A stretch of DNA of 64,000 bases from a virus. Location: positions 1 through 64,000 of the IMG/VR virus record IMGVR_UViG_3300025312_000002; one strand, written 5' to 3'. Shown here one piece after another: positions 709-19,588 of this stretch (positions are counted from its first letter, which is position 1; each line of letters starts with the position of its first letter). The notes beneath the pieces were generated by a model, which ran no database searches, had not been told where the DNA came from, and saw only the letters and a program-made list of their open reading frames with translations. The position numbers and the translations under genes are program-made.

Positions 709-3700
709 AGAATCCTTTCAAAAGGGATTGTAAAATCGTTTCTAACAGGTCAATTTTAGACGATCTTACAATTCTCGATCTCTATTGTGAAGAATTTCCT
801 AATGCACAAGAGGTTACTATATCAGTAAATGGGAAAACCATTGCTTCAGCTCAATGGGAGTATGTGCGTATTAAAGAAGGAGATGAAATTTTAGTTGTTC
901 CTGATATTCAAGGAGGAGGGGACGGTAAAAATCCTCTTGGATCAATTTTAATGATTGTTGTTGCTGCCGTTGCAATCTATACAGGGCAATATTATTTATT
1001 GAAGTATCCTGGTGAATACTTCATGGCTGCTGTTATTACTACATCAATAATGACAGTAGGCTCTAAGTTAGTAAATGCAATTGCTCCAAATACTCCTCCT
1101 TCTCAAACAATGGACGCTTTAGATACAAATTCTTCTCAGACATACTCTTGGAGCCCACAAACTGTTCAACAACAAGGTATTGTAATTCCTAGAATATATG
1201 GATTAAATAAAGTTTATGGAAATGTCATTACAGGATTCCTTGAAAGCACAGGAAATAATTACACAGCTAAGGTTTTAATAGGGCTTGGGTGTGGGCCTAT
1301 CAATAAAGTTTATGATTATAAACTAAATGATCAATTAGTAAAAACGAGTGAAAACGGAGTAGCTTCAACTAATTTTGATGGAACAGAAATCTATGTAAAG
1401 CTTGGAACAGTAAATCAAACGGTTATTCCTGCATTTAATGACACAAAAATAGAGTTTGTTGTTTCTAACGGATTATTACAGTATAATACAGCTTATACAT
1501 ACACAACAAACGGATCTACTTTTGATGGTTTAGAAATTGATGTTTCTTTTCCTCAAGGTCTTTATCATTTTACAGATGCAGGAACATATGAAAATTATTC
1601 TGTTGATGTAAAGGTGGAGATTAAAAAGCAAGGGGATGTTTCTTGGACAAATATCAGCTCTTCTTGGCTTTCTACTGCAACTGTTACAGACGGGGAAGTA
1701 TCAGGAAGATGGTCAAAAGGATATTGGTTTGTAGTGGATGAAGACCCATACTATATATGGGTTGAAAAGGGAATAGATACTAATGTTTATGAAGATCATT
1801 CAGACGGAGAAGCAACGGGAGAGACAGAAAACGGAACTCCTTTGATTTGGTCGTGGGTAAAAGGAAGTATTTACAGTACAGCGGATCTTGTAGTAGGACA
1901 AAATGATTATGCTACTTTACAAGGGAATAAATCAACTTCAATAACAAAAAAATTTATAGCTAAAAGTCTTCCTCATGGAATTTATGATATAAAAGTAACA
2001 AGATTAACAACAGAAAATACTGATATTCGGTATGGGGATAAACTTCATTTTCCAATGGTTAGAGAAGTTTATTATGATGATTTTTCTTATCCTCGGATTG
2101 CTTTAGTTGGAATCAAATCTCTTGCAACACAGCAAATATCAGGCTCATTGAGATTTTCTTGTTTAGTTGAAGGTTTGAAATGTAGGGTTTATAATTCAAG
2201 CACAAGCACATGGAGTGTTGCTTATACAAATAATCCTGCTTGGGTTTGTTGGGATATTCTTACTCAGCCTGTTTTTAATGAGAATGAAACAGTAAATAGA
2301 TATGATGGATATAATCCCGCTTATCTTGATCTTATCAAATTTGCTGAATGGGCTGATTGGTGTGATGAAATTGTAGTAGGAACAAAACGAATTACATTTA
2401 ACGGAATATTTGATAGTCAATTTGATGTTTGGGCTGCTGTTCTTAAAGTATGTGAAACAGGCAGAGCAATTCCTATTTGGAATGGAACTAATATTACGAT
2501 TGTTATTGATAAGGCAGGAACAGAAACACAGCTATTTACAATAGGGAATATAGGAGTTGATTCATTTAAAGAGGTATTTCTTTCTGAAGCTGAACGAGCA
2601 GGAGAAATTGAAATTGATTTTATTAATAGTGAACGGGATTATGAAAAGGATAAATATACTTTAATAAATACAACAATAGGAAAACCTAGTAATAAAGCAT
2701 CAATACAGATGATGGGCATAACTTCTCCTTTAGAAGCTTGGAGAGCTGCTAAATACAAATTGCTTTGTAATCAATATCTTTTGAGGATGATTGAATTTAA
2801 TGCCGATGTTGATGCTATTGCTTGTACTGTAGGGGATATTGTTAGAGTAGGGCATTCTGTTCCTGCGTGGGGAACAGGAGGAAGGGTTGTTTCAGCAACA
2901 ACAAATACTATTACATTGGATCAATCTGTGACGATTGAAGCAGGACATACTTATGAAATACTTGTGAAATTATCTGATGACTCAATTGCTGATAAGGTCA
3001 TTGCTACTTCTATTGCTGGAAACTATACAACTTTAACAATAAGTGGAACATTTGCAACAATTCCTTCTCAGTTTGATGTTTTTACATTTGGAGAAACAAG
3101 CATTTCTTATAAGCCTTTTAGAATTATTGGGATGAGGAAAACTGCTGATCTGCGAATAACTCTTACAGGCATTGAATATAATGAATTAATTTATGATGGA
3201 GATGGAGAGTCTTATATTCAGCCTGCAAATAATTATTCTTCGTTAGAGCCTTTTGTGCAGGTGACTAATTTACAGTTGATGCAGGAAGTAGCTGTTGATA
3301 ATTCAGAAGCATTGATTGCTAATATTACAGCCTTTTGGGCAGTAGGTGATAACACAATATATTCAGGAGCAAAGGTTTATGTTAGAGAAGTACAAGTTGA
3401 TGGGTCTTATACTAATTGGCAATTTGATGGAGAAACAAGAACAACTTCATATCGGGTTAAGAATGTTGTTTTAAGTAAAACATATCAAATTGGAGTTTTA
3501 GGAATTAATTTTACAGGATTAACAGTTCCGTTCACGAGTATTGTAACAGCAAATATTACAATCCAAAGTGATCCTTCGTTCTTTTCAGAGTTTTTGAAGA
3601 AAAGAGTTTCAGGGCTTCAGTTAATTGATGATCCTAACGGAGATGAATTTGACGGGAAGGATTGTAAAATACAATGGAATTCTGTTTCGGGAGTTGATAT

Positions 3701-8250: not shown

Positions 8251-10167
8251 ATGAGCCAATATCGCTTGGGTACAATTAAGATGATCAATGGCGATGCTAC
8301 TGTCGAAGGAACAGGAACATCTTGGTCTGGAGAAATTGACATTTCCGATCTTTTTAAAGCAAAAGATGAGGATGTTATTTATCAGGTAGCTTCAGTGACA
8401 AACAATACAAATCTTGAATTGTCAACACCATATTCAGGAATAACAAGATCAGGGGAATTATATCAAATCAATCGGGATTTTACTCCTAATTTAAATCTTC
8501 CTTTAATAAGTGCAGGAGATATTGATTGGCCTGCTTTTCTTAATAATGCAATTACTTTGATTGATGCAAGGATAAATCAATCATTGCTTACTTCTTCTTC
8601 CCCCACATATGTAGGAGTAACTTTAAGCGGGTTGACAGCTTCTCTTCCTGTATTTACTAATGCTTCTAAAGCCCTTGTTTCTAATCCTATGACAGGAACA
8701 GGCAGTGTTGTAATGTCTATTTCTCCTGCTCTCGTCACTCCTGCCCTTGGCACCCCTTCGTCAGGCGTGTTATCAAATTGCACCGCTGGGACTGAAGGAG
8801 CCAAAGGCGTGCTTGCTTTAGCCACAACCGCAGAGGTTGTTACCGGCACAGACACAGCAAAGGCTGTTACTGCTGCTGGGGTACAAGCAAAGATCGCCTC
8901 CTCCATCTCCGACGGCGACACAACCCATGCTCCGGATGGGAATTCTGTCTTTGATGCACTGGCACTGAAGGCACCATTAGCGAGTCCCACATTTACAACT
9001 CAGATTACCACTCCCGTAGTTTATGGATCATCTGCCGCCGATGGAGATATTACCATTGAAGGGACATCATCAGCAACGAAGACGACTAGTTATGTAATCT
9101 TACAACCAACAACCGGCAACGTCAGCATCGGGACGACGGCAAATGCTTGGGATGGAAAGTTAGGAGTACATACAGCAACAACAAATAAAACAGCCTTTGT
9201 CGTCTACTCAAATAGTTCAAATACTGTCCCGTTAGCGAGAATACATCAGGATGGGTCTGCTGCAAGCGGCGATGCTCTATGGATAGATAATGACGGAAGA
9301 GGATTGTCGTTAGATGTGGTTAAGGGAACATCTTATTTCGGCGGCAATGTCGCCGTCGGGACGACGGACTTAGACGGAACACCTGCTGTGGGTCAACTTA
9401 CTGTCAAGGGAGCCACCGCTGACGGCTCTACTCTTATCTTCGTAGGTCGTGATTCTGCTGAAGCTAACGTAATCACCATCGACACTGATGGAGACATCCT
9501 CAACTCTGCTGGCGTGTATGGAACCATCTCAGATGAAAAGGTTAAGGACAACATCAGGGATGCAACCGCAAAGTTATCCGACATTCTGAAACTCAAGGTT
9601 AGAAACTTCAACCTTATCGGTAGCGATCTTAAGCAGATCGGCCTGGTAGCGCAGGAGATGGAAACAGTATTCCCCGGCCTTGTCAAAAGTGCCCCTGATA
9701 TGGAGCGTGTTCCCGACCCCGACTGGAAGCCGTCCATTAAGACCCGACAAGTGGAAGAAGTTTCTGAGGTGGAAAAAATCAAGACCGAGATCGTTGAGGT
9801 TGAGGGAAAGTATGTCAGAAAGACCATCACAACTACAGTAGAAAAGAAAACTCCTCTGTTTGATATTTTTCCGCTTTACGACGAAGAAGGCAATCAGATA
9901 TTCGACACGATTCCGGGAAAGCCCGAAGTGCTTGATGAAAATGGAAATGTTCTTGAACCTGTAACACCGGATGTCATTACCCCTGTACTACACCGAGTTC
10001 CTCGGACGGAAGAATATACTGAAGATGAATCCGACAGACCCATGATTCTCAGACCTACTGGAACGGTAACGAAGGCAATTAAGCAATCTGTTCTTATCCC
10101 GATCCTGTTGAAGGCTGTGCAGGAATTGGCCGCTGAAGTTGCGACACTAAAGAAAGCAAGGAAATAA
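8251..10167 (+). CDS. Tail fibre with C-terminal intramolecular chaperone (peptidase S74-like)
   Basis: N-terminal V.G.GT.W anchor; SDEKVKDNI...IGLVAQEME...LLKAVQEL chaperone motifs. Confidence 0.85.
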   Translation: MSQYRLGTIKMINGDATVEGTGTSWSGEIDISDLFKAKDEDVIYQVASVTNNTNLELSTPYSGITRSGELYQINRDFTPNLNLPLISAGDIDWPAFLNNAITLIDARINQSLLTSSSPTYVGVTLSGLTASLPVFTNASKALVSNPMTGTGSVVMSISPALVTPALGTPSSGVLSNCTAGTEGAKGVLALATTAEVVTGTDTAKAVTAAGVQAKIASSISDGDTTHAPDGNSVFDALALKAPLASPTFTTQITTPVVYGSSAADGDITIEGTSSATKTTSYVILQPTTGNVSIGTTANAWDGKLGVHTATTNKTAFVVYSNSSNTVPLARIHQDGSAASGDALWIDNDGRGLSLDVVKGTSYFGGNVAVGTTDLDGTPAVGQLTVKGATADGSTLIFVGRDSAEANVITIDTDGDILNSAGVYGTISDEKVKDNIRDATAKLSDILKLKVRNFNLIGSDLKQIGLVAQEMETVFPGLVKSAPDMERVPDPDWKPSIKTRQVEEVSEVEKIKTEIVEVEGKYVRKTITTTVEKKTPLFDIFPLYDEEGNQIFDTIPGKPEVLDENGNVLEPVTPDVITPVLHRVPRTEEYTEDESDRPMILRPTGTVTKAIKQSVLIPILLKAVQELAAEVATLKKARK

Positions 10168-10613
10168 TGGATAAATACAACCACTGGCTAGGGAAGTTAT
10201 TCAGCAGATTATTCAACAATGGAAAACCCTATGCGGTTACTGCCATTATTTGTGCGTGTTTGCTGTCCTCCTGTGCAACAATGCAGGAAGCAAACAAGAA
10301 AGGCACGTGGACGCACGCAGACACAACTGTTCTCGTAGTTGGCACTATCGTCTCTGCTATGGATTGGAGCCAGACCCTGCACATAGCGGACTATCCCAAT
10401 GATCACAGGGAAATGAACACGCTCATGGGAGGGAATGGGCACCCATCCAGGGGCCAGGTTAACACCTACTTTGCCCTTAATTTATTTGTTCTCCAACCCA
10501 TCGTGCTTTACTTTTGCCCACCGAACTGGAGACGATACATCATAGGGGGCAATGCAGCAGTTGAAGGCACAATGGTCTTGCATAATCAGGGAAAGGGGAT
10601 TCACCCGTTTTGA
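10167..10613 (+). CDS. Membrane/lipoprotein-like hypothetical protein
   Basis: LLSSC lipobox-like segment and hydrophobic helices; D...T and E.N.L.G motifs. Confidence 0.55.
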   Translation: MDKYNHWLGKLFSRLFNNGKPYAVTAIICACLLSSCATMQEANKKGTWTHADTTVLVVGTIVSAMDWSQTLHIADYPNDHREMNTLMGGNGHPSRGQVNTYFALNLFVLQPIVLYFCPPNWRRYIIGGNAAVEGTMVLHNQGKGIHPF

Positions 10614-10645
10614 GTTAACATCTTTGACTTGAGGAGGACGATGTA

Positions 10646-10981
10646 ATGGCGACAGAATACGAGACACTTTTAAGCACAATGCACGACGGCTTTCACGGGG
10701 TACACAACCGGATAGATGCCTTTAACGCTGAGTTCAATAATCATCGGCTATCCTGCGCAAAGTTGTTTGAGGAAATTCACTTAGACGAGGCTAACCGAAA
10801 AGGGATAGCGACGGCAACAGCTAATGCCTTGAAAATCCATGAAGAAAACAAGGCAGTAGAACTAAGAAACCGAATTAATGTGGGTACGGTAAAGACGTAC
10901 ATAGTCGGGCTGCTCTTGGGGGTGATAACTCTTGGGGCGCTGAAAATCCTTTTCACAAACCTTGGACAATGGAAATGGTAG
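10646..10981 (+). CDS. Coiled-coil protein with C-terminal TM helix (lysis-module protein)
   Basis: GGAGG RBS; single C-terminal hydrophobic helix; upstream of endolysin. Confidence 0.55.
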   Translation: MATEYETLLSTMHDGFHGVHNRIDAFNAEFNNHRLSCAKLFEEIHLDEANRKGIATATANALKIHEENKAVELRNRINVGTVKTYIVGLLLGVITLGALKILFTNLGQWKW

Positions 10982-11170
10982 AGGAGGCCAAAGTGGAAAT
11001 TACAACTCATAACCAACCGTGGAGCGAGCAGTGGAACAGGCGTCTCTGTACGAATGGAGACGAGGTTGTATTTATAACCTATAGCAACAAGACCCTTAGT
11101 TCTAGTCTCATAAAAACAACCAATATATGCGCGCCCATCAAGGCGTTTGTTGCGTGGGAGAGGCCTTAAA

Positions 11171-11326
11171 ATGGAAAACAAGGCCTGTTGCCCCCGCTGC
11201 CAGAGTGACCGCATAGGCCATAACATAGGCATGTATTTCGTGGCCTATGAATGCCATGATTGTAAGTACCAGTGGGTTGAGCGGTTCGAAATCAAGAATG
11301 ATAAGGAGAATTCGGTATGTGGCTGA
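11171..11326 (+). CDS. Small Zn-ribbon protein (51 aa, not in ORF track)
   Basis: Translated by hand: MENKACCPRC...ECHDC; GAGAGG RBS. Confidence 0.55.
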   Translation: MENKACCPRCQSDRIGHNIGMYFVAYECHDCKYQWVERFEIKNDKENSVCG

Positions 11327-11477
11327 ACAATATACACGCAAACCAACCATCACCTCCGGATGGATTTGGTGGCGCCATGTGTTCGTGTGCGGAATGTACA
11401 AAGGCAAGATGTAAATCAATAAAGATTTCAGTGTTAGAAATATTGCAGGAAGCGAACGGGATAAAAGGAGGCGACAG

Positions 11478-11786
11478 ATGTCAATAGGGAATGATCAGCG
11501 AGTGTTCACTAAACTTGTAGGAAAAATGATTCTGTGGGCTTACGAGCAAGGATATGAGCTAACCTTCGGTGATGCTTGGGCCAAGACCGGGCACGTCGCG
11601 GGCAGCTTTCATTATTCTCGGTTAGCCGTTGACTTAAATCTCTTTAAAGACGGCGTATGGCTTCAAACAACTGAGGCACATAAGTTCCTTGGAGAGCATT
11701 GGGAAAGTCTTGATCCTAAATGTACATGGGGCGGGCGCTTTAAACGGGCCGACGGCAATCATTACAGTTACGGGGAGGGCAAGTAA
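11478..11786 (+). CDS. Endolysin, peptidase M15 family
   Basis: SFH...LAVD and DGNH Zn-peptidase motifs, WGG.F. Confidence 0.85.
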   Translation: MSIGNDQRVFTKLVGKMILWAYEQGYELTFGDAWAKTGHVAGSFHYSRLAVDLNLFKDGVWLQTTEAHKFLGEHWESLDPKCTWGGRFKRADGNHYSYGEGK

Positions 11787-12230
11787 ATGGGAATATCATT
11801 AGCAAATTTAGATATTGGCGGTTTGTTTAGCGGCATAGGAACTTTGGCAAAAGATATTCGTACCGCCATAACTGGCAAAGAACCGATTAGCTCCGATAAA
11901 GCAGCCGAAATTTCCCTTAAGCTCGCGGAGCTGGAAGGCAAGATAGAGGAAGGCAGGGTGTCCGTTCTCGTCGCAGAAGCTTCCTCAAGTGATAAATTTA
12001 CCTCCCGCGCAAGACCATCTTTCATGTACGTTTTTTATATAGTTGTTCTATGTCTGACATTAGCAGCTCCATTCGTAGGGGTATTCTTCCCTGCACAGAT
12101 GATAAAATTTTATGCTAATGTTCAGTACGGATTTAAGGCTATCCCTGATATTATGTGGCAAACATTTGGTGTCGGATACCTCGGATATGTGGCCGCAAGA
12201 GAATACGGCAAAACTAAAGGTAATGGTTAA
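11787..12230 (+). CDS. Holin (3TM / GTA-type family)
   Basis: AEA.S...F..RARP motif, TM helices, GYLGY...R..GK end; adjacent to endolysin. Confidence 0.8.
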   Translation: MGISLANLDIGGLFSGIGTLAKDIRTAITGKEPISSDKAAEISLKLAELEGKIEEGRVSVLVAEASSSDKFTSRARPSFMYVFYIVVLCLTLAAPFVGVFFPAQMIKFYANVQYGFKAIPDIMWQTFGVGYLGYVAAREYGKTKGNG

Positions 12231-12362
12231 AATAAGCTAAAGGAGAATTATCAAAATGGCTAAGACAGGCAAGGTTGCCGTGTTGCCAGATGATTGGATT
12301 CACGCTGGGGATGGTCGGTATGGGTGGGTTGCGTAGCTTTGATAAGCTAAAAGGCGCAGCAG

Positions 12363-12543
12363 CTAAATAGATGGGTTCTTGCTGACCAGCGAACTGTTCA
12401 ACTCCTCCGATTTCCGCCTGGCATATTCAGCATCGAGCATGGCCTTCCTTGCCCGATCCTCAAACGTACAGCGGTCTGTATGGTTTATCCTGTTTAATTC
12501 GTTTCCGATTTCCTCCAGAGACATTTTTGTAAAGTCCATCATT
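12363..12543 (-). CDS. Small hypothetical protein (cassette-like)
   Basis: GAGGAGG RBS before MMDF; start trimmed relative to ORF track (approximate). Confidence 0.5.
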
Positions 12544-12560
12544 AGTTCCTCCTCTCCTTT

Positions 12561-12635
12561 CAAAAACCGTGCCCCCGCAATAGGCAGAATTATCATATCC
12601 CAATATCAATAATTATGCCTATTGCACTGTTATCT
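12561..12635 (+). repeat. Degenerate attC-like palindrome
   Basis: GCAATAGGCA.AATTAT...ATAATT.TGCCTATTGC inverted repeat ending in R'-like GTTATCT. Confidence 0.5.
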
Positions 12636-12830
12636 GTCTATAAATTTTGTACTGGCAACCATCGTAGTCGGAAGGCTGTCTCCGTGTGGAGCTATCCGTA
12701 CATTACCGCATTGACACCTTTCCAGTATGGTCATTAGGTGCGTCGGGTTTGCTGTGGGCTTCTCGTCATACTGGAGTTCCCGCAATATGTATTTATGTAT
12801 CCCTATCCGGCATAAAATATTCATAGTCAT
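12630..12830 (-). CDS. Cassette ORF, hypothetical (C..G.H...C.CG Zn-ribbon-like)
   Basis: GGGAG RBS; stop codon lies in the GTTA of the attC-like R' box. Confidence 0.55.
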   Translation of the reverse strand: MTMNILCRIGIHKYILRELQYDEKPTANPTHLMTILERCQCGNVRIAPHGDSLPTTMVASTKFIDR

Positions 12831-12882
12831 CTCCCTATCTTTCAAGTACCGAAAAAACCATATAACAATCAATTAACTCCAA

Positions 12883-13119
12883 CTATGGCGTGACTCTAAA
12901 TGCTTCTCTTACTGTTTCCAGAGTCGCTTCCAGTGGCCCCAGGCGCAAGCAATATTGTCTCCGTAGCTCAAGTATGGACGGTATATCAAAGCCGAACAAC
13001 TTGAACGAATGCCTTTTCAACTGCTCGTAGAGGGACAGGCATTCCACGGTAAAAGGCCGACCTTCAACATCTGTAAAAACCATGTATTCCATTTTCGCTC
13101 CTTTTCTGGGATCAATCAC
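12883..13119 (-). CDS. Cassette ORF, hypothetical
   Basis: AAGGAG RBS before the internal MEYM start; bounded by attC remnants. Confidence 0.55.
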   Translation of the reverse strand: MIDPRKGAKMEYMVFTDVEGRPFTVECLSLYEQLKRHSFKLFGFDIPSILELRRQYCLRLGPLEATLETVREAFRVTP

Positions 13120-13129
13120 AATAAAACCC

Positions 13130-13217
13130 CCATAACAATTAAATCAAGCGGAGTGGGAATGTCGCTGGTCGCATTTCTATTCATATTCGTGGCCGCCCGC
13201 TTATTACTGCGTTATAC
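13130..13217 (+). mobile_element. attC: Integron attC site (canonical)
   Basis: R'' CCATAAC, 5 nt, L'' AATCAAGC (extra C) ... L' GCTTATT, 5 nt, R' GTTATAC; same architecture as aadA-type attC. Confidence 0.85.
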
Positions 13218-13445
13218 CACCGCTACAAGAATTTTAGCTTCTTTGAATCCTGGCCACATGCGTTTAAACCACGACTTAAATCCTCCATCGGCAGGTGCTA
13301 ACATGCACAGATGATGGTCTAAGAAACTATATCCCTGTTTTTCTGTCAAACAATGCTCCTTAACAAGGGTCCCAATGGTTGCAGTCATAGCACCCGTAAG
13401 AAGATCGTTTATTTCGTCTTCACCGGTTATTGATCGTACTATCAT
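13212..13445 (-). CDS. Cassette ORF, hypothetical
   Basis: GGAGG RBS; TAA stop is the complement of the R' GTTA. Confidence 0.65.
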   Translation of the reverse strand: MIVRSITGEDEINDLLTGAMTATIGTLVKEHCLTEKQGYSFLDHHLCMLAPADGGFKSWFKRMWPGFKEAKILVAVV

Positions 13446-13465
13446 TTCCCCATCCTCCTATAACG

Positions 13466-13552
13466 TATACACAATTAAATGAAGGCGACAGGAATAGCCG
13501 CCGTGGTTTTCATTGAAAGTATGAGGCCCACCGCCTCATCTCATTGTTATGT
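13466..13552 (+). mobile_element. attC: Integron attC site (R'' slightly degenerate)
   Basis: TATACAC-AATTA-AATGAAGG...CCTCATC-TCATT-GTTATGT. Confidence 0.7.
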
Positions 13553-13556
13553 GCCA

Positions 13557-13757
13557 CTAATAATCCCTACCCTGACCATCTTTTATGAGTTTACTTTCTT
13601 GTTTGAACCGTTTCCACTCATCTCTCAACTCGTCTATGGAGTCAAAGAAGTCGATTCCCTTTTTATCCATTTCCTCAAGGCGGCCATGGACTTTATTGAG
13701 AACATTCCAGCGAGCATCAGTCATCGGGCAAGAATTTTTCATAAAATTACCTCGCAT
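13557..13757 (-). CDS. Cassette ORF, hypothetical
   Basis: GAGGT RBS before the internal MKNS start; lies between two attC sites. Confidence 0.55.
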   Translation of the reverse strand: MRGNFMKNSCPMTDARWNVLNKVHGRLEEMDKKGIDFFDSIDELRDEWKRFKQESKLIKDGQGRDY

Positions 13758-13809
13758 AACCAGTCACTATAGTGGACGCCCAGGAGCGCCGCTTACCTTT
13801 GCGTTAACT
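13754..13809 (+). mobile_element. attC: Integron attC site (short, 56 bp)
   Basis: R'' GCATAAC...AGTGG-A-CGC loop GCG-CCGCT...R' GTTAACT. Confidence 0.7.
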
Positions 13810-13959
13810 TCAATGCCAACTGTGATCATGGTGCCCCTCTCCGTATGTTCCGTCCTCATTAAATCCGTGCATTGCCGCATTAAAGTGATCTACAATTAGT
13901 AGGGCTACATACAACACTGCTGAAATAATAAAGATAATCCATCCCGCCCCTATGTCCAT
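13810..13959 (-). CDS. Cassette ORF, small membrane peptide (~49 aa, not in ORF track)
   Basis: AGGAG RBS; MDIGAGWIIFIISAVLYVALLIV... Confidence 0.5.
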   Translation of the reverse strand: MDIGAGWIIFIISAVLYVALLIVDHFNAAMHGFNEDGTYGEGHHDHSWH

Positions 13960-13981
13960 TTCCGATCTCCTGTAGCAAAAC

Positions 13982-14068
13982 AGATAACAATAAAATCAAG
14001 GCGACGGGGATTTCCTCCGTCGCATTTCAGGCACAGGCATTGGTTCGTGCTTTATTACTGCGTTAGCA
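13982..14068 (+). mobile_element. attC: Integron attC site (canonical)
   Basis: R'' AGATAAC-AATAA-AATCAAGG...CTTTATT-ACTGC-R' GTTAGCA; ends nearly identical to the 13130 site. Confidence 0.8.
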
Positions 14069-14419
14069 CTCACAAAAAGATACGCCCTCGCTATAGTATC
14101 CGCTGTCGCCATACCATCGGATTGTCACAAATCCCTTTACCGTGGCAAATTTGTAAAACGTCCAAGTAAAACTACGATTCTGCTCTTCTTTTGTTATTCC
14201 TTTGGGATTTTTGACCTCTTCCGCTTCAATCATTGGAGATCCGACTAAATCAGAGAGGCCCCCAATGATTTCCTCAACAGAGACGTTTTCGCAGCCTTCC
14301 GGTTCATGGTACAATTTGTATTTCTTTCCTTCGTCTGTCGTGAATATGATTTCCTCATTATGGTTGTTCTCAACTCTTGCCATCGTCTTGCCTATCAAAT
14401 CCCTTAATTTTGCTCCCAT
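14063..14419 (-). CDS. Conserved phage hypothetical protein (YH..C.E.V...TWTFY...RWYG family); cassette ORF
   Basis: GGAGG RBS before MGAKL; stop overlaps R' GTTA. Confidence 0.7.
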   Translation of the reverse strand: MGAKLRDLIGKTMARVENNHNEEIIFTTDEGKKYKLYHEPEGCENVSVEEIIGGLSDLVGSPMIEAEEVKNPKGITKEEQNRSFTWTFYKFATVKGFVTIRWYGDSGYYSEGVSFCEC

Positions 14420-14518
14420 CTCGTCCTCCTTGTGGTAAAATAATAAAAATGCCAAATCGGGTAGCCGGGAGACCAGTGCTATCATGACATTCTTTATCCA
14501 TAGTGGCTTTCCTCACAC

Positions 14519-15133
14519 CTAGTATGAAACAACGGAAACTCCTTTTGTTTGTTCTACAAAAAATATTTTATCAGCTTTCTTTAGGATGTTTTTTTGATCA
14601 GAAATCATTATTATTTGAAGATTTAATTTTTCTGAGACTTCTTTTATCAATAAAGATGCTTTTTCTTGGTACTCAGGATTATGAAGAAACTTGCTTGGCT
14701 CATCCCACAACATTGTATTTCTTGTTTTTCTGATACTCCAAATAGCAAGAGGAAATGCAACATTTGCTACTACATCAGCAACTCCTCCTCCTCCTACAGC
14801 AAGTATATCATCACACTCATTCCCATTCTTAATAAACAGCAAATCTGCTTCAGTTTTATTTCTTCTCTGAACAAATTTGAGTTTAAATTCATAAGGCTCA
14901 GGAAATACAGCAGCTAAAGCAGAAGAAACTACTGTGCTGATTTGTATCTCAATATGCTGCTGGGTCTGTTCTGCTACTGCCTGGATAACACTCCTTGCTT
15001 TTTGGGCATTTTCGTAGCGTGTGTTTTGTTCTTCTCGTTTATCAAAAACTTCTTGTGCTTGGGATTGATAAACTTTTCGTTTAGCCATTTCCTCAATCAA
15101 TCTATTTTTTATTAGTTGTAATTTACCATTCAT
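14519..15133 (-). CDS. SbcC/Rad50 C-terminal half (ABC signature + Walker B)
   Basis: Coiled coil, GGGVAD signature-like motif, MLWDEP Walker B/D-loop. Confidence 0.8.
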   Translation of the reverse strand: MNGKLQLIKNRLIEEMAKRKVYQSQAQEVFDKREEQNTRYENAQKARSVIQAVAEQTQQHIEIQISTVVSSALAAVFPEPYEFKLKFVQRRNKTEADLLFIKNGNECDDILAVGGGGVADVVANVAFPLAIWSIRKTRNTMLWDEPSKFLHNPEYQEKASLLIKEVSEKLNLQIIMISDQKNILKKADKIFFVEQTKGVSVVSY

Positions 15134-15359
15134 ATTGAGCCTTCAATACAGAGTATTTTCCCTCAATTTCTTTTTCAAGCTTAGTGAGTTCTGCTTGCTG
15201 AGAAACAAGAGCTTTCTTAGCCTCTACAATCGAACGGAACCCTAGTTCCTTGAGAGTTTTCATCTGCTCTTCCAATTTCCCTGTCAAAGAAGCTTTTTGC
15301 ATCTTTGAACTTTCAATTTGCTTTGATAACTTTTCCAAATCATTTATAATATTATTCAC
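15123..15359 (-). CDS. Small coiled-coil protein within the SbcCD cluster
   Basis: Heptad pattern; translationally coupled to neighbours. Confidence 0.6.
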   Translation of the reverse strand: MNNIINDLEKLSKQIESSKMQKASLTGKLEEQMKTLKELGFRSIVEAKKALVSQQAELTKLEKEIEGKYSVLKAQYEW

Positions 15360-16245
15360 TCACAACCTCCTTTAATAGATCAGCAACACCTTTTTCAACC
15401 TTATTTTCTTTTAAATACTGAGTTAAATTATCTTCAAAAGATAAGGACATACTTTTAGTGTTTGATAATCCGCTTATGAAAGAAGCAAATTTATCTGTTC
15501 TTTCCTTCTTTTCTTTTATTCTTTCAAGATTAAAAACTTCTGAAATCGGTTTGATTGGTACTTCAAATTCTTTATATTTGCTTGTTTCAGTGTCGAACAG
15601 AACAACTTTTGGGATGTGTTCTAATTGAGCTGTTGTTGCTCTCATTAAACTTCCGCAATTGAATAAATGTTTATTGCCTACTTGAGCATGAAAATAATTA
15701 TGATTGTCACCTGAAACAATCAAATCAAACTCATGCTTTCTAAGCAGATTTTCAGCATAATCAAAACCTTTTTGAGCATCCCAAATCTTATCATTATGAA
15801 TAATCATTCTGTGAGTAAGAAGAATACTGTACATATGGAAATCAAGTATTTCTGGAATCTCTTCTCCAAATGAAGCCCTATATATATGCAACCCATCATA
15901 AATAGGAGTGTTGTTTGGAATGATTTTTAAAACATTTGCAGCTTCAAGAACTGCAAGAGGAGTGTCATCAGTATCATCGGAATGATATTTCATATCATGC
16001 TGCCCTAGCACAGTAAAAATAGGAACTTCTGAACATGAAAATATGTTGATATATGTTTGGAGAACTAAATTTGATTGCTTATAAGAATCAAAAACATCTC
16101 CTGGAAGAAGTAAAGTAGCTTTGTTCTGAACAGCTAAACCCACAATATAATTTATTTTTTGGATTTGGGTTTCAAAATAATTGTCTGTTCGATTCTCTGG
16201 ATTTTTAGAAGTTATATGTAAATCACCTGCAATAAGATATTTCAT
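15352..16245 (-). CDS. sbcD: SbcD/Mre11-like metallophosphoesterase nuclease
   Basis: GDLH, GDVFD, GQHD, SGDNH, NCGS motifs. Confidence 0.88.
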   Translation of the reverse strand: MKYLIAGDLHITSKNPENRTDNYFETQIQKINYIVGLAVQNKATLLLPGDVFDSYKQSNLVLQTYINIFSCSEVPIFTVLGQHDMKYHSDDTDDTPLAVLEAANVLKIIPNNTPIYDGLHIYRASFGEEIPEILDFHMYSILLTHRMIIHNDKIWDAQKGFDYAENLLRKHEFDLIVSGDNHNYFHAQVGNKHLFNCGSLMRATTAQLEHIPKVVLFDTETSKYKEFEVPIKPISEVFNLERIKEKKERTDKFASFISGLSNTKSMSLSFEDNLTQYLKENKVEKGVADLLKEVVSE

Positions 16246-17336
16246 ATATTAGCCTCTATATATTTTAAAGAAGTAGGTGTTATGGGTTCAAAGCAGATAG
16301 GACAAACGTCAGCTTTACTTAACAGTGATTTATATTGGGAAATAAATCGTTCCAATTTCAATTCTTCTTCTGTTTCCGCTTTAGTTGTTTCTTCTAAAAA
16401 AATAAGAGTTTTAAATAGAACTGCATTTTTCTTTTCTTTTTCTTGAATAAGAGGAAATAAAGAAGAAATCTTTTTATGCTCTTCTTCAATTTGAAGCCAT
16501 TCAGACTCAGCCTGTAAAGTTTCTTCTGATTCTGAAATTGACATCAGAAGGTTATCAAGAGTAGAAATTGCTTTTTGACTATCTGTTCGAATAGAAATTA
16601 ACTTCAAAATCAAGTCTTTTTCATTTTCAAGAGTTTCATCATAAATAAGTTCTTCAATTTGTCCTTGCAGAGTTTCTATAGATTTGATTGTCCCATCAAT
16701 TCTAAGGTACTCGGAACTGCTCTTTTCCTGATTTGCAGTCAGGAGTTCAAGTTTCTCTACAATGACCTTTATTTCATTTAAAAAGGCTAATTCTTCGACT
16801 TTAGTGTTTAACTTAGTAATTTCAATATCATAGTCAGTTATTTTTCCTTTTGCTATGCTTACAATTGAGTTTATCTTGGAAAAAGCTCGATCAATAATAT
16901 CAAGACCCACCCACTCATTAAACTTTCGTGCAACCTCTCCGGGAGTGTCTTGAAGAAGAAAATAAGGTTGATGTTGGGTTTGAATGTTGTAGTCCACAAT
17001 ATTTGTGATCTTTTTTAAATCTTCAGGAACATCAGATTTTAATGCTTCAAATTGTGTACCATTTAGATCGTAAGTATTTTTATTGTTTTTTCTTTCTTTG
17101 GAAATGTAAGTTCCTTCTGCAAACTCTATTCCTACATTGACGGACTCTTTATCTTTAGAAAACCAAGAATTAAATTCATTTCCTAAAGGTCTATTATTTA
17201 AAACCCAAAATAAAGCCCTAAAGATTGCACTTTTTCCAGAATCCGAGGCACCCGTTATGATATTTACTCCTGGAACAAACTCAAGGAATGTGCTTTTATG
17301 ACTTTGGAAATTTGATATTTCGCAGGTCTTAATCAT
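16242..17336 (-). CDS. SbcC/Rad50 N-terminal half (Walker A to Zn hook)
   Basis: NFQSH, GASDSGKS Walker A, Q-loop, coiled coil, terminal CPIC hook. Confidence 0.85.
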   Translation of the reverse strand: MIKTCEISNFQSHKSTFLEFVPGVNIITGASDSGKSAIFRALFWVLNNRPLGNEFNSWFSKDKESVNVGIEFAEGTYISKERKNNKNTYDLNGTQFEALKSDVPEDLKKITNIVDYNIQTQHQPYFLLQDTPGEVARKFNEWVGLDIIDRAFSKINSIVSIAKGKITDYDIEITKLNTKVEELAFLNEIKVIVEKLELLTANQEKSSSEYLRIDGTIKSIETLQGQIEELIYDETLENEKDLILKLISIRTDSQKAISTLDNLLMSISESEETLQAESEWLQIEEEHKKISSLFPLIQEKEKKNAVLFKTLIFLEETTKAETEEELKLERFISQYKSLLSKADVCPICFEPITPTSLKYIEANI

Positions 17337-17346
17337 TTTTGTTTCC

Positions 17347-17976
17347 TCAAGTAAATAGCTTTTGCTGTTTTTTCAACAGCACAGGTTTTTTCTGTTCTAT
17401 TCTGGAATGAAGAAATAATGCAGGTCTAATATCCACAATCCATTCAAAAAAGTCAGTAAGAGACAGAATAACAAGGTTCATGGAACAAATATAAACAGGA
17501 CATTGACCTCCAAAGAAATCAAGTAACACATAAAAATATTTATCAGTAAAGCAAATACAAGGTGTTCTATTGTTTCTTCTAAAGATAAGAACAGGAATTT
17601 TGTTTGTCAAATCAGCATCTCGTTTACATTGATTCCACATCTTTTGTAAAACAGGCTTTTTTTGTGTTGAATCAAGGAAATCCAAAACATCCCATCTAAC
17701 TATTTCTGTTTTTTCTTCTTTCTTCTTTTTTATTCCATACCCTGTTTTTATTTCTATTGACCATGATTTAATTAAAAGTTCTCCTTCTTGATCTGAACAA
17801 GTAATGTCTCCGCTTTGCAAAACAGTATCTTTCCCCGTTTTTCTCCTTGATGTAAATCTTGCTCCTGAAGATTGGCTTCGATAAAAAACATTATCATTAT
17901 TTCCTTGACTAAACCAAAGAGACAACACTTTTGCTATAGCTCTTTCAAAATCATGTCCTTTTCCTGAACTACTCAT
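17347..17976 (-). CDS. Holliday junction resolvase-like PD-(D/E)xK nuclease
   Basis: KG..FER, SGA, GDI, IEIK, PVLIFRRN motifs. Confidence 0.75.
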   Translation of the reverse strand: MSSSGKGHDFERAIAKVLSLWFSQGNNDNVFYRSQSSGARFTSRRKTGKDTVLQSGDITCSDQEGELLIKSWSIEIKTGYGIKKKKEEKTEIVRWDVLDFLDSTQKKPVLQKMWNQCKRDADLTNKIPVLIFRRNNRTPCICFTDKYFYVLLDFFGGQCPVYICSMNLVILSLTDFFEWIVDIRPALFLHSRIEQKKPVLLKKQQKLFT

Positions 17977-18364
17977 TTTTTATGCTCCCTACAATTGAGG
18001 CTTTTCTTATTCTAGGAGCATCTCCGTCTAGCTGCAACCAATCTTTTTGAATGTTATTAAAACTATTCTTTCCCCTTATTTGAAAAGCAACTATAGCCAA
18101 ACATCCCCAAGCAGCATGGGCTAAGTGATGTAACTCACTCTTCTTATCAAACCCTTCTCCTAGAATCCAAGATGTAATATGTCGAAAAATAGCTGCAATG
18201 ATTCTTGAGAACTTTATTCCCTTTTCCCAGTTCCTGTCTCCGTATTCTTCTGCCCCCTTTGTATATACTTTTGCAAGTTCTTCAAGGGCATCAAATGGGA
18301 GCAGATCGTATCTTAATTTCCCCTCGTCATCTTTCCTGCCTTCAATTCCGATTTCAATTTTCAT
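17969..18364 (-). CDS. dATP/dGTP diphosphohydrolase-like protein (DUF5664 type)
   Basis: K.D.GK.RYDLLP, GA..YG..NW.KG, RH...GE..D..S.L.HLAH motifs. Confidence 0.8.
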   Translation of the reverse strand: MKIEIGIEGRKDDEGKLRYDLLPFDALEELAKVYTKGAEEYGDRNWEKGIKFSRIIAAIFRHITSWILGEGFDKKSELHHLAHAAWGCLAIVAFQIRGKNSFNNIQKDWLQLDGDAPRIRKASIVGSIKNE

Positions 18365-18588
18365 AATTCATACCCCAATATTTGTGATTCTGATTGAATA
18401 CTTCTTAAACAAACTTGACATAAAAACTTGTTTGGTGGACGAACTAAACGAGAACATATTTTTTCCTTTCCTGTGTAAAAACCATCATCAATTATGTTTT
18501 GGCATCTTCGTATAGGAGGAATATTTTTTCTTTTCCTAAGAACAGGGGCAGGAACTATTTTTCTTTTTCTTAAAATGGGTTTTTCCAA
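18361..18588 (-). CDS. Small basic Cys4 protein
   Basis: Tandem KPILRKRK/APVLRKRK followed by four Cys. Confidence 0.55.
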   Translation of the reverse strand: MEKPILRKRKIVPAPVLRKRKNIPPIRRCQNIIDDGFYTGKEKICSRLVRPPNKFLCQVCLRSIQSESQILGYEL

Positions 18589-18745
18589 TTATCCAATCCT
18601 CAATAAAACCCAAATTAAAGTTGATAAATAGTTTCATCCTTCCCCAATTCCTTCTCTAGCTCCTTTATTTTCTTTTCCAAAGTGACCTTTGCTTTAGAAT
18701 TTTTTGTCAAAGAAAGAATTTGTCTTAATTCAAACAAGCGAGTTT

Positions 18746-19588
18746 TTACTGAAGTGATAGAATTGTTTTGCATTTTTCTAAATACTCCTTTTCTAGCATT
18801 GATCGAAAACCATATTGAGCAAGTATAGTAACAAAATTTTTATAAGAGAGCACAGGTTTTTTATCAGGAAGTTTAATTGCTGTTGTTCCAGGGTAAGGAA
18901 GAGAAACTAAAGGTAAATTAAAATCAATTAATTCCTTGTTCGATACTATTTTCTGATGTGCTGCTGAAGTTATTTTCAGCTCTTTCTTCAGATACTTGAT
19001 TGCTGTTTTAGTTCCTATTGTAGGAATTCCGGGTATGCTGTCACTATCACATCCCGCTATAGCTTTAACATAAATCCATTGATTAGGAGGAATATTATAC
19101 TCATCTTCAAAATTACCCTTGGAGAATTCTACTTTATTGTACAGAGAAACTCTGTCTGATAATAATTGGTAAAGATCATTATCAGTTGAAATAATAAGGA
19201 ACGGAATGTCTTTCTTTTCGTTTTGGATAATGGAAGCTATTAAATCATCAGCTTCATATCCTTCTTGGGAATAACTAAGAAAACCTATATTTGGAATAAC
19301 TGATTCTTTCAGCTCATTGAATTGTCGATAGCAAAGAGCATCAAACTCTTTTTCTTGTTCTGTTCTTTCCTGATGTCTTTTTCCTTTGTAACCAGGAAAA
19401 TGTTCTTTCCGAATAGATGTTTTACTGTCCCAAGTAAATATAAAATCATTTGTTTTGAATATTTTAGCAAGAGAAATGATTTTTCTAAGGAAACCAAAGA
19501 CAACTCCTACCTCATTTCCTTCGTAAGAAAGATCAAGCGTGTGTTTTGCTTGGTAACAAATAGAACTGCTGTCAACTATGATTGTCAT
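18746..19588 (-). CDS. 5'-3' exonuclease / flap endonuclease (T4 RNase H-like)
   Basis: IIVD, YK..R, YEADD, STDNDL.QL, GCDSDSIPG motifs. Confidence 0.9.
   Translation of the reverse strand: MTIIVDSSSICYQAKHTLDLSYEGNEVGVVFGFLRKIISLAKIFKTNDFIFTWDSKTSIRKEHFPGYKGKRHQERTEQEKEFDALCYRQFNELKESVIPNIGFLSYSQEGYEADDLIASIIQNEKKDIPFLIISTDNDLYQLLSDRVSLYNKVEFSKGNFEDEYNIPPNQWIYVKAIAGCDSDSIPGIPTIGTKTAIKYLKKELKITSAAHQKIVSNKELIDFNLPLVSLPYPGTTAIKLPDKKPVLSYKNFVTILAQYGFRSMLEKEYLEKCKTILSLQ

Follow-up and report, generated by a model that had tools for sequence, protein, structure and literature searches.

The 64,000-nucleotide stretch of viral DNA analysed here (hereafter the window) comprises positions 1–64,000 of IMG/VR virus record IMGVR_UViG_3300025312_000002, the first 64 kb of a complete 82,511-bp record with 99-bp direct terminal repeats. 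Between 12363 and 14485 it carries seven small open reading frames (ORFs), all on the − strand and each with a Shine–Dalgarno (SD) site, which are separated by imperfect palindromes with a common 5′ motif and a common 3′ motif (repeat families D1–D3). Four of these palindromes are attC sites of the integron type on the + strand, and the genes between them are reversed relative to the sites. We read the region as a cluster of attC sites lacking integron integrases (CALIN) with about five single-gene cassettes, which would have undergone integrase-mediated exchange at a conserved hairpin site and is now partly decayed; the probability of this reading is put at roughly 60%. The evidence consists of covariance-model matches, a count of gene strand across the attC family and a second phage, C264, in which the same hairpin site is followed by different cassettes.

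According to integron theory, strand selection by the integrase serves to place promoterless genes behind the cassette promoter. The attC family described here is present in two phages, a complete integron and 72 metagenome stretches; its genes are for the most part reversed and match the border of the cassette precisely, which raises the questions of how such cassettes are made, how they are expressed and whether they are a phage-specific currency. By the definition of Cury et al. (2016; PMC4889954), a CALIN has at least two attC sites that share a strand, are spaced by less than 4 kb and have no integron integrase nearby. The phage CALIN as a class of object is already known: the accessible text of Qi, Rajabal, Ghaly, Tetu and Gillings (2023, Front Microbiol; PMC9892861) reports 17 CALINs and three complete integrons among 10,705 phage genomes, with IntI1 recombining five of the six sites tested. 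The newer points are the family-wide placement of genes on the bottom strand, the stop codon at the G|TTA crossover and the sister phage with the same site and different cassettes, which provides a concrete phage pair for testing gene exchange by integrases in viruses.

attC sites in the window

Rfam has no attC family and its search of the window gave noise only; models were therefore built from authentic integrons. The first covariance model (R1) drew on three deposited phage records named in Qi et al. (2023), which supplied 11 authentic attC sites: Shewanella phage M16-3 (a CALIN as well as intI with array), a V. anguillarum prophage (intI with array) and P1 with class 1 integrons. The sites were picked between annotated cassette genes, and the structure consisted of the R and L helices and an unpaired position. 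MAFFT failed to register short against long attC sites; the 11 alignable sites served as the seed and Infernal realigned the rest. An automatic picker based on fold energy was dropped because it selected coding stretches. On its three source records R1 gave 36 matches, all 36 on the cassette-sense strand and 25 of them outside the training set; among the classic sites, aadA1 attC scored 24.3 bits and aadA2 attC 19.7 bits. A second model (R2) was rebuilt from these 36 matches and contains no phage-array sequence from the window, and a third (R3) is a family model of 24 sites from the related arrays L006, L014, L023 and L008 introduced below, with none from the window. R3 shows membership of the family, and R1 and R2 are the independent test.

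When both strands of the whole window were searched with filters off, the top two matches of R1 were sites A and D (scores in Table 2), both on + and within the range of the bona fide non-training sites aadA1 and aadA2. R2 returned the same two on + (A, E 3e-5; D, E 0.02), everything else reaching at most 11 bits, and the top two matches of both models span the full model. R3 finds exactly four sites, all on +, the next best match having 12.7 bits, and nothing in the rest of the genome (64001–82511). A model trained on canonical sites thus matches two of the four sites and the family model all four. The first-pass annotation, made from the letters of the window, had proposed these four sites; R3 recovers each of them within 1 nt, and R2 bears out A and D and misses the other two. 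The R″ (RYYYAAC) and R′ (GTTRRRY) cores are CCATAAC/GTTATAC in A, GCATAAC/GTTAACT in C and AGATAAC/GTTAGCA in D. Site B has a one-base insertion in R″ (GTATAcAC), which R3 aligns just as the annotation had. In the model alignments, each of the four sites has its unpaired position on the 5′ arm of +, in agreement with the earlier argument from extrahelical bases that + is the attC top strand.

The four + sites lie inside 940 bp, and the complete 82,511-bp genome yields no candidate for an IntI or any other tyrosine recombinase (TIGR02249, PF00589), as had been noted for the window. The locus is no complete integron, having no intI and starting at a hairpin (12561–12635) that every attC model leaves unscored. 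That hairpin had been listed as a degenerate attC site and is real and conserved; a second such site, at 12860–12888, has repeat similarity only and no attC model match, and a proposed R″ remnant at 14477–14483 is a bare 7-mer without support.

Gene strand in the attC family

Gene strand was assigned in each interval between neighbouring sites from an ORF with an SD site, at least 90 nt long and filling at least half of the interval (Table 1). None of the five window intervals is classed as sense, with its gene upstream of the attC and co-oriented with the attC top strand, as cassette genes are expected to be; four are antisense and one, that of c2, has ORFs on both strands, so that the earlier statement that all ORFs are antisense and have ribosome-binding sites stands for four intervals and is ambiguous for the fifth. 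Across the distinct cassettes of the family, 51 of the 56 decided are antisense, compared with none of 18 in the canonical controls. The antisense genes are real and general for this attC family, and the reversed polarity is not this phage's own choice of odd cassettes. The interval rule is preferred here because it made no false antisense call in the 32 control intervals.

Table 1. Gene strand relative to the attC top strand, by interval
Set	Intervals	SENSE	ANTI	Both	None
Canonical controls	32	18	0	0	14
Window	5	0	4	1	0
L006	7	0	7	0	0
C264	9	1	5	0	3
All family, dereplicated at 90% (98 intervals to 77)	77	5	51	3	18

The antisense ORFs are very small, with a median length of 63 aa compared with 177 aa for the sense ORFs, and begin at a median distance of 21 nt from R″. 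In 31 of 52 the upstream G|TTA crossover supplies the stop codon, which coincides with its TTA; in the window, c2, c3, c4 and c7 stop inside the TTA of R′, as the first-pass annotation had seen. Three antisense ORFs exceed the Pfam cut-off (TnpB, Lar and DUF7736). The 18-nt motif of the short site type is present in 72 metagenome stretches, in which R3 gives 156 matches and nhmmer 136, and IntI similarity is found at one of these 72 loci. The idea that each attC site carries a promoter for the reversed gene found no support in a sigma-70 scan, which gave no excess (8 versus 5.3 ± 2.1).

A second phage with the same site and different cassettes

A pattern of the shared motifs led to IMG/VR fragment L006, with eight model matches, all on +; another pattern match, L007, was due to chance, lying inside a tail-fibre gene without model support. 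Among species-representative genomes the pattern occurred in nine stretches, of which two hold arrays (L014, ten matches on +; L008, three on −) and seven were chance matches lacking model support. The sites of L014 are closely related to A, C and D of the window and fall into a long and a short type. This stretch forms the start of C264, a 55,360-bp contig with identical 141-bp ends in metagenome-assembled genome (MAG) G001, which is 100% identical to a JGI metagenome contig. C264 encodes a large terminase (E 7e-98), a portal/adaptor protein, a major head protein and tail proteins, and is by this gene content a second phage; no tyrosine recombinase was found in it.

C264 and the window are 91–92% identical in nucleotides at 8890–9137, 10260–10613, 11189–11483 and 12407–12543, the last within c1, and 85% identical across the hairpin (12543–12631). 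The alignment stops right after the GTT of GTTATCT in the window and of GTTGAAC in C264, and beyond this point the two are completely different: C264 continues with at least ten attC sites and other cassettes, followed by leftward exonuclease and ERF recombinase genes. Judging by its conservation beside the array in the sister phage, c1 is backbone rather than a cassette, and the hairpin is a candidate docking site at which the variable part starts. We infer cassette exchange at this site because a second phage has the same site and flanking module with other cassettes, and this makes integrase-mediated exchange in the phage lineage a well-supported proposition. The earlier suggestion that the phage captures or shuffles cassettes through a host IntI is favoured to this extent, but not as an ongoing process, the sites in the window being partly decayed. 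Cassette content differs in the more distant C264, a turnover that the annotation had predicted, and is constant among close relatives.

The hairpin was at first read as an IS200/IS605 end, because a TnpB gene comes next in C264; that gene, however, is flanked by matching R′/R″ boxes in the manner of a cassette. It is the first C264 cassette (L014 94–1425) and encodes a 387-aa TnpB with OrfB_IS605 and Cas12f1-like TNB domains; bounded by GTTGAAC and the complementary GTTCAAC, it looks cassette-borne rather than like an inserted insertion sequence. A second cluster of three attC sites, all on + (47.5, 36.5 and 30.5 bits), lies about 5 kb beyond the first array of C264 (L027 2554–3221, equal to C264 10554–11221). 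Among the cargo of the sister arrays (L006 638–826 and 2968–3144; L014 2891–3280) are a restriction-alleviation protein of the Lar type (31.2 bits, cut-off 28.6), a second and weaker Lar-like zinc ribbon and a Dam-like fragment below the cut-off, which suggests anti-restriction genes.

Relation to complete integrons

The MAG that holds C264 contains two integron integrases above the TIGR02249 cut-off. One locus, L023, encodes a full IntI (431 bits, cut-off 265), and on the 5′ side of intI ATAAGTGGAA occurs as three direct repeats and once as an inverted copy, which together with G|TTATCT form an attI-like region (3246–3420). It is followed by a 61-aa ORF with a strong SD site on the intI strand, the stop codon of which is the TTA of the G|TTATCT core, and then by an attC site on the strand opposite intI that is cut by the contig end. 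To judge from this layout, L023 combines the canonical platform geometry with a reversed gene, and gene reversal in this complete integron extends to the first cassette beside the attI-like region. The same region, in a Syntrophales bin, also has a short SD-led ORF reading into the first cassette. We take this short ORF to be reminiscent of ORF-11 of attI1. A further locus, L116, serves as an internal control, since its sites are of this same family, lie next to an IntI N-terminal remnant on the attC strand found in a canonical integron, and go with sense ORFs of 181–378 aa.

An integron integrase scoring above the TIGR02249 cut-off is encoded in 54 of the 151 genomes sampled from the order of G001. 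At L029 and L032, two of the 20 order loci inspected, the geometry is of the Treponema type, with attC on the intI strand and on its 3′ side, and the ORFs are sense. Reversed cassettes as an order-wide trait were rejected, as ten IntI-linked arrays from other genomes hold more sense than antisense ORF length, a comparison that uses the greedy longest-ORF method, which is unreliable for tiny genes.

Recombination footprint and points against the reading

The complementarity of the upstream R′ to the next R″ was scored at three variable positions and assessed by permutation. Such pairing had been pointed out in the window as the footprint of integrase-inserted cassettes. Its mean there is 1.8 of 3, compared with 0.67 for the two cores of the same site; the footprint is significant in the sister arrays (L006, 2.71, p 0.0004; C264, 2.2, p 0.00025), the sites of which are well formed, and 3 of 3 throughout in the canonical controls.

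Several observations weigh against a CALIN shaped by cassette exchange. In the window the footprint of cassette circularisation is weak and only suggestive (permutation p 0.064, n = 5), site B has its insertion, site D a mutated and partly lost L′, and one site is collapsed. R2 misses 13466–13552 and 13754–13809 even in a 3.4-kb search, and R1–R3 differ from the model of IntegronFinder and give rough E values. Exact copies of c4, c5 and c6 occur on 16, 17 and 14 contigs, compared with 14–15 for backbone proteins, and there is therefore no sign of variation among close relatives; the exact 69-aa form of c3 is on two contigs, a low count because that form was looked up, and its 78-aa cluster members are on four and three. 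Pairs of arrays sharing an ORF with different flanking sites, which would tell which attC travels with the ORF as the mobile unit, number none among 28 similar pairs, and no promoter-like excess accounts for the expression of reversed cassettes in a bacterial integron. L023 is tied to C264 by MAG binning alone, and the GC content is 36% in this phage compared with 49% in the sister phage. As for gene strand, L008 is ambiguous; a length-only test downstream of R′ at the metagenome loci gave 26 reversed, 29 forward and 12 without an ORF, with eight further cases too near an end; and a greedy longest-ORF count favours + in the window (three ORFs, 771 nt, versus none). The + ORFs of that count run across attC sites and lack an SD site, and the method, which called the window sense, was judged unreliable for arrays of tiny genes. 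From its weak footprint, the decay of its sites and the constant copies among close relatives, the window array is probably no longer exchanging cassettes.

Proposed mechanism and alternative explanations

The window array belongs to a distinct and widespread attC family with long (about 87 nt) and short (about 56–63 nt) types, in which the gene normally lies on the bottom strand. In the direction of the gene, a unit consists of attC, an SD site, a small ORF and a stop codon for which the G|TTA crossover supplies the TTA. At the start of the array stands the conserved hairpin ending in GTT. We propose that cassettes were swapped there by an integron integrase, presumably supplied by the host because neither phage encodes one, and expression would come about by read-through of the leftward phage transcript, each gene being translated from its own ribosome-binding site. 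More tentatively, and with somewhat more doubt than belief, phages may keep a pool of 'attC-first' cassettes that are swapped at a phage-borne docking hairpin by means of a borrowed host integrase. If so, cassettes could cross host integrons unexpressed, because the reversed genes face the cassette promoter there, and would be read only in a phage operon; accessory and anti-restriction genes of phages, including those for the Lar-like protein and the Dam-like fragment, would then be shuffled by an integron-based route.

An unlikely alternative, though one with real points in its favour, is that the array is a fossil acquired en bloc: built elsewhere, in a bacterial integron or another phage, it would have arrived within a tail-fibre/lysis module of about 5.6 kb by homologous recombination between phages, no integrase would ever have acted on this phage and the sites would be decaying passengers. 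The compositional island at 8800–14400 (Table 2) joins the C-terminus of the tail-fibre protein, a 148-aa protein, the lysis genes, c1, the cassette array and c7, so that the array is part of a module exchanged between phages, and the backbone segments 91–92% identical to C264, the decayed sites with their weak footprint and the constant content in close relatives all suit such an origin. Against it, the two phages share the site and its flank but no cassettes, with homology ending exactly at GTT, which implies cassette-level exchange at this point within phage genomes at some time, and the sister arrays have well-formed sites and significant footprints. Being in parts 91–92% identical to a phage of 49% GC, the island in itself looks like the exchange of a host-range/lysis module between dissimilar phages.

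Much less probable is a mis-assigned polarity, by which − would be the functional top strand of ordinary cassettes and the extrahelical base would sit on an unusual arm. On −, an ORF does end in xxTAAC and is followed by a palindrome, GTTAxxx and an SD site, like a canonical cassette, and the R′/R″ footprint is by its symmetry blind to strand. The strand calls tell otherwise: the model placed all 36 matches in authentic arrays on the right strand, the best − match in the 3.4-kb search around the window sites has 4.8 bits, L116 combines the same strand call with an intI remnant placed as in canonical integrons and with large sense ORFs, and the attI-like half-site G|TTATCT of L023 lies on + beside the 5′ end of intI. 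In addition, the accessible text of Nivina et al. (2016; PMC5027507) has the placement of the extrahelical bases define which attC strand is the top one and which the bottom one, and by it an unpaired base on the AAC arm of + marks + as the top strand.

That the elements are merely phage intergenic hairpin repeats resembling attC (terminators, RNA-processing sites or recombination hotspots of the T4-like type) is scarcely credible: they do sit between co-directional small genes, and as DNA, A and C fold no better than shuffled sequences (z +1.12 and −0.57 on −), but models without any phage-array sequence detect the sites, the same site types adjoin IntI and attI, terminator-like hairpins occur, among the sites, in B only, and Rfam gives nothing.

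Comparison with known systems

Like the phage CALINs in the accessible text of Qi et al. (2023), the present array has two or more attC sites without an integrase in a phage genome and small cargo genes. As far as that text describes them, the cassettes of TJE1 and PH101 are oriented as in bacterial arrays and sites were shown by assay to be recognised by IntI1, whereas here the genes lie on the attC bottom strand, a conserved array-proximal hairpin is common to two phages with different cassettes, and the sites are known from sequence alone.

Canonical integrons (class 1, Vibrio, Shewanella) share with this family the R″-L″...L′-R′ layout, an unpaired base that the top strand has on its AAC arm, the G|TT crossover, the complementarity of the upstream R′ to the next R″ (only suggestive in the window) and a single strand for all sites of an array. 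They differ in gene strand (antisense in 0 of 18 controls versus 51 of 56), in the size of the ORFs, very small here, and in the stop codon, which here comes from the TTA of the core site and not from the TAA of R″. In the integrons of Treponema, Chlorobium and Blastopirellula, intI and the cassette genes are likewise transcribed the same way, but intI runs toward attI and the cassettes are normal relative to attC, going by Wu et al. (2013; PMC3607928) and Tansirichaiya et al. (2019; PMC6557892); the intI of L023 reads away from attI, as it does in ordinary integrons, and the cassette gene is the reversed one, and the present phage has no intI. Of cassettes facing the promoter, Nivina et al. 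(2016; PMC5027507) state that none had been seen.

Sedentary chromosomal integrons contain reverse-oriented cassettes with their own promoters, for example toxin–antitoxin cassettes. Such cassettes resemble those described here in that the gene opposes the direction of the array, but they are a minority with promoters of their own, whereas here reversal is the rule for a whole attC family without a promoter-like signal. Reverse-oriented cassettes of sedentary chromosomal integrons are also mentioned in the accessible text of Tansirichaiya et al. (2019; PMC6557892). In the corresponding part of Pereira et al. (2020; PMC7370490), ORFs were predicted only upstream of attC on the top strand, and surveys conducted in this way would miss the reversed genes. 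No description of a reversed-gene attC family was found in the literature searched, taken without supplements; the list of other phage CALINs in Qi et al. may bear on its novelty.

Features of the array and its surroundings

The array is flanked on its left by genes transcribed rightward, which encode a tail-fibre-like protein, an M15 peptidase and a holin, and on its right by genes transcribed leftward, which encode an ATPase and an SbcCD-like nuclease pair. The sign of the GC skew flips at about 12400, which places the array at the meeting point of two convergent arms, as the first-pass annotation had stated; in this complete double-stranded DNA phage it closes the leftward arm at its 3′ end. 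Megablast of 9000–19000 against deposited phages gave no match. In L001, a distant relative with an ATPase identity of 53%, the corresponding locus lacks an array; a 50-nt match to the canonical attC model at L001 5082–5131 (17.3 bits), on the strand opposite to the window sites, is probably due to chance.

Table 2. Coordinates of the array features in the window
Feature	Position	Strand	Description	Basis
c1	12363..12542	−	59 aa, SD	ORF list; 92% nt identity to C264; no significant family
Hairpin site	12561..12635	+	ends in R′-like GTTATCT (12629–12635)	17-nt arms, 94% complementary; DNA fold z −4.67
c2	12630..12830	−	66-aa cassette ORF	stop = TTA of GTTATCT; no Pfam/PHROG family
Collapsed site	12860..12888	+	R″-like ATATAAC and degenerate R′ (A)CTATGG, almost nothing between	repeat similarity only
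c3	12883..13092	−	69-aa cassette ORF, SD	orphan (Pfam, PHROG, ESM Atlas)
attC site A	13130..13217	+	long type, best formed	R1 23.7, R2 31.3, R3 54.4 bits
c4	13212..13445	−	77-aa cassette ORF, SD AGGAGG	stop = TTA of R′ of site A
attC site B	13465..13552	+	long type, R″ insertion, divergent 3′ arm	R3 25.1 bits, E 0.0012; missed by R2
c5	13557..13742	−	61-aa cassette ORF, SD	ORF list, strand test
attC site C	13754..13809	+	short type	R3 32.9 bits, E 1e-5; missed by R2
c6	13810..13959	−	49-aa cassette ORF, hydrophobic N-terminal half, His-rich tail	ORF list, strand test
attC site D	13982..14068	+	long type, L′ arm mutated	R1 18.4, R2 19.8, R3 38.0 bits
c7	14063..14422	−	DUF7448/phrog_2650 gene	stop = TTA of R′ of site D; Pfam E 4.9e-25, PHROG E 6.3e-37
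Compositional island	8800..14400	.	GC 42–50% versus 31–39% around	composition profile

Repeat families D2 and D4 align 12842–12872, at the collapsed site, with 13112–13142, and the 5′ arm of site B resembles those of A and D (D1). Site A is 81–82% identical to two C264 sites and site D 79% identical to C264 4509–4603; site C is 83–90% identical to short sites in ten metagenome loci, those listed being L057, L062, L081, L090, L100, L103, L106 and L116, with L090 and L106 duplicates. Five intrinsic terminators were found in the array region, compared with 2.1 ± 1.6 expected: three inside site B and two to the left of the array, at 12465–12482 and at 12570–12586 on the 5′ edge of the hairpin site, with none in A, C or D.

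None of c2–c6 belongs to a Pfam or PHROG family, and the ESM Atlas gives no function for c3 or c4; among 5.8 billion clusters the sole match of c4 is its own cluster, and viral contigs searched with c4 gave no match. The last gene, c7, has a GC content like that of the island and is either the last cassette or a backbone target, the 7-mer at 14477–14483 being the sole attC sign beyond it. For c6, the 90% cluster representative belongs to a MAG with the name Candidatus Wunengus sp. YC61 (Brocadiaceae), a possible hint of host or habitat, at odds with the binning of the sister phage in Syntrophales.

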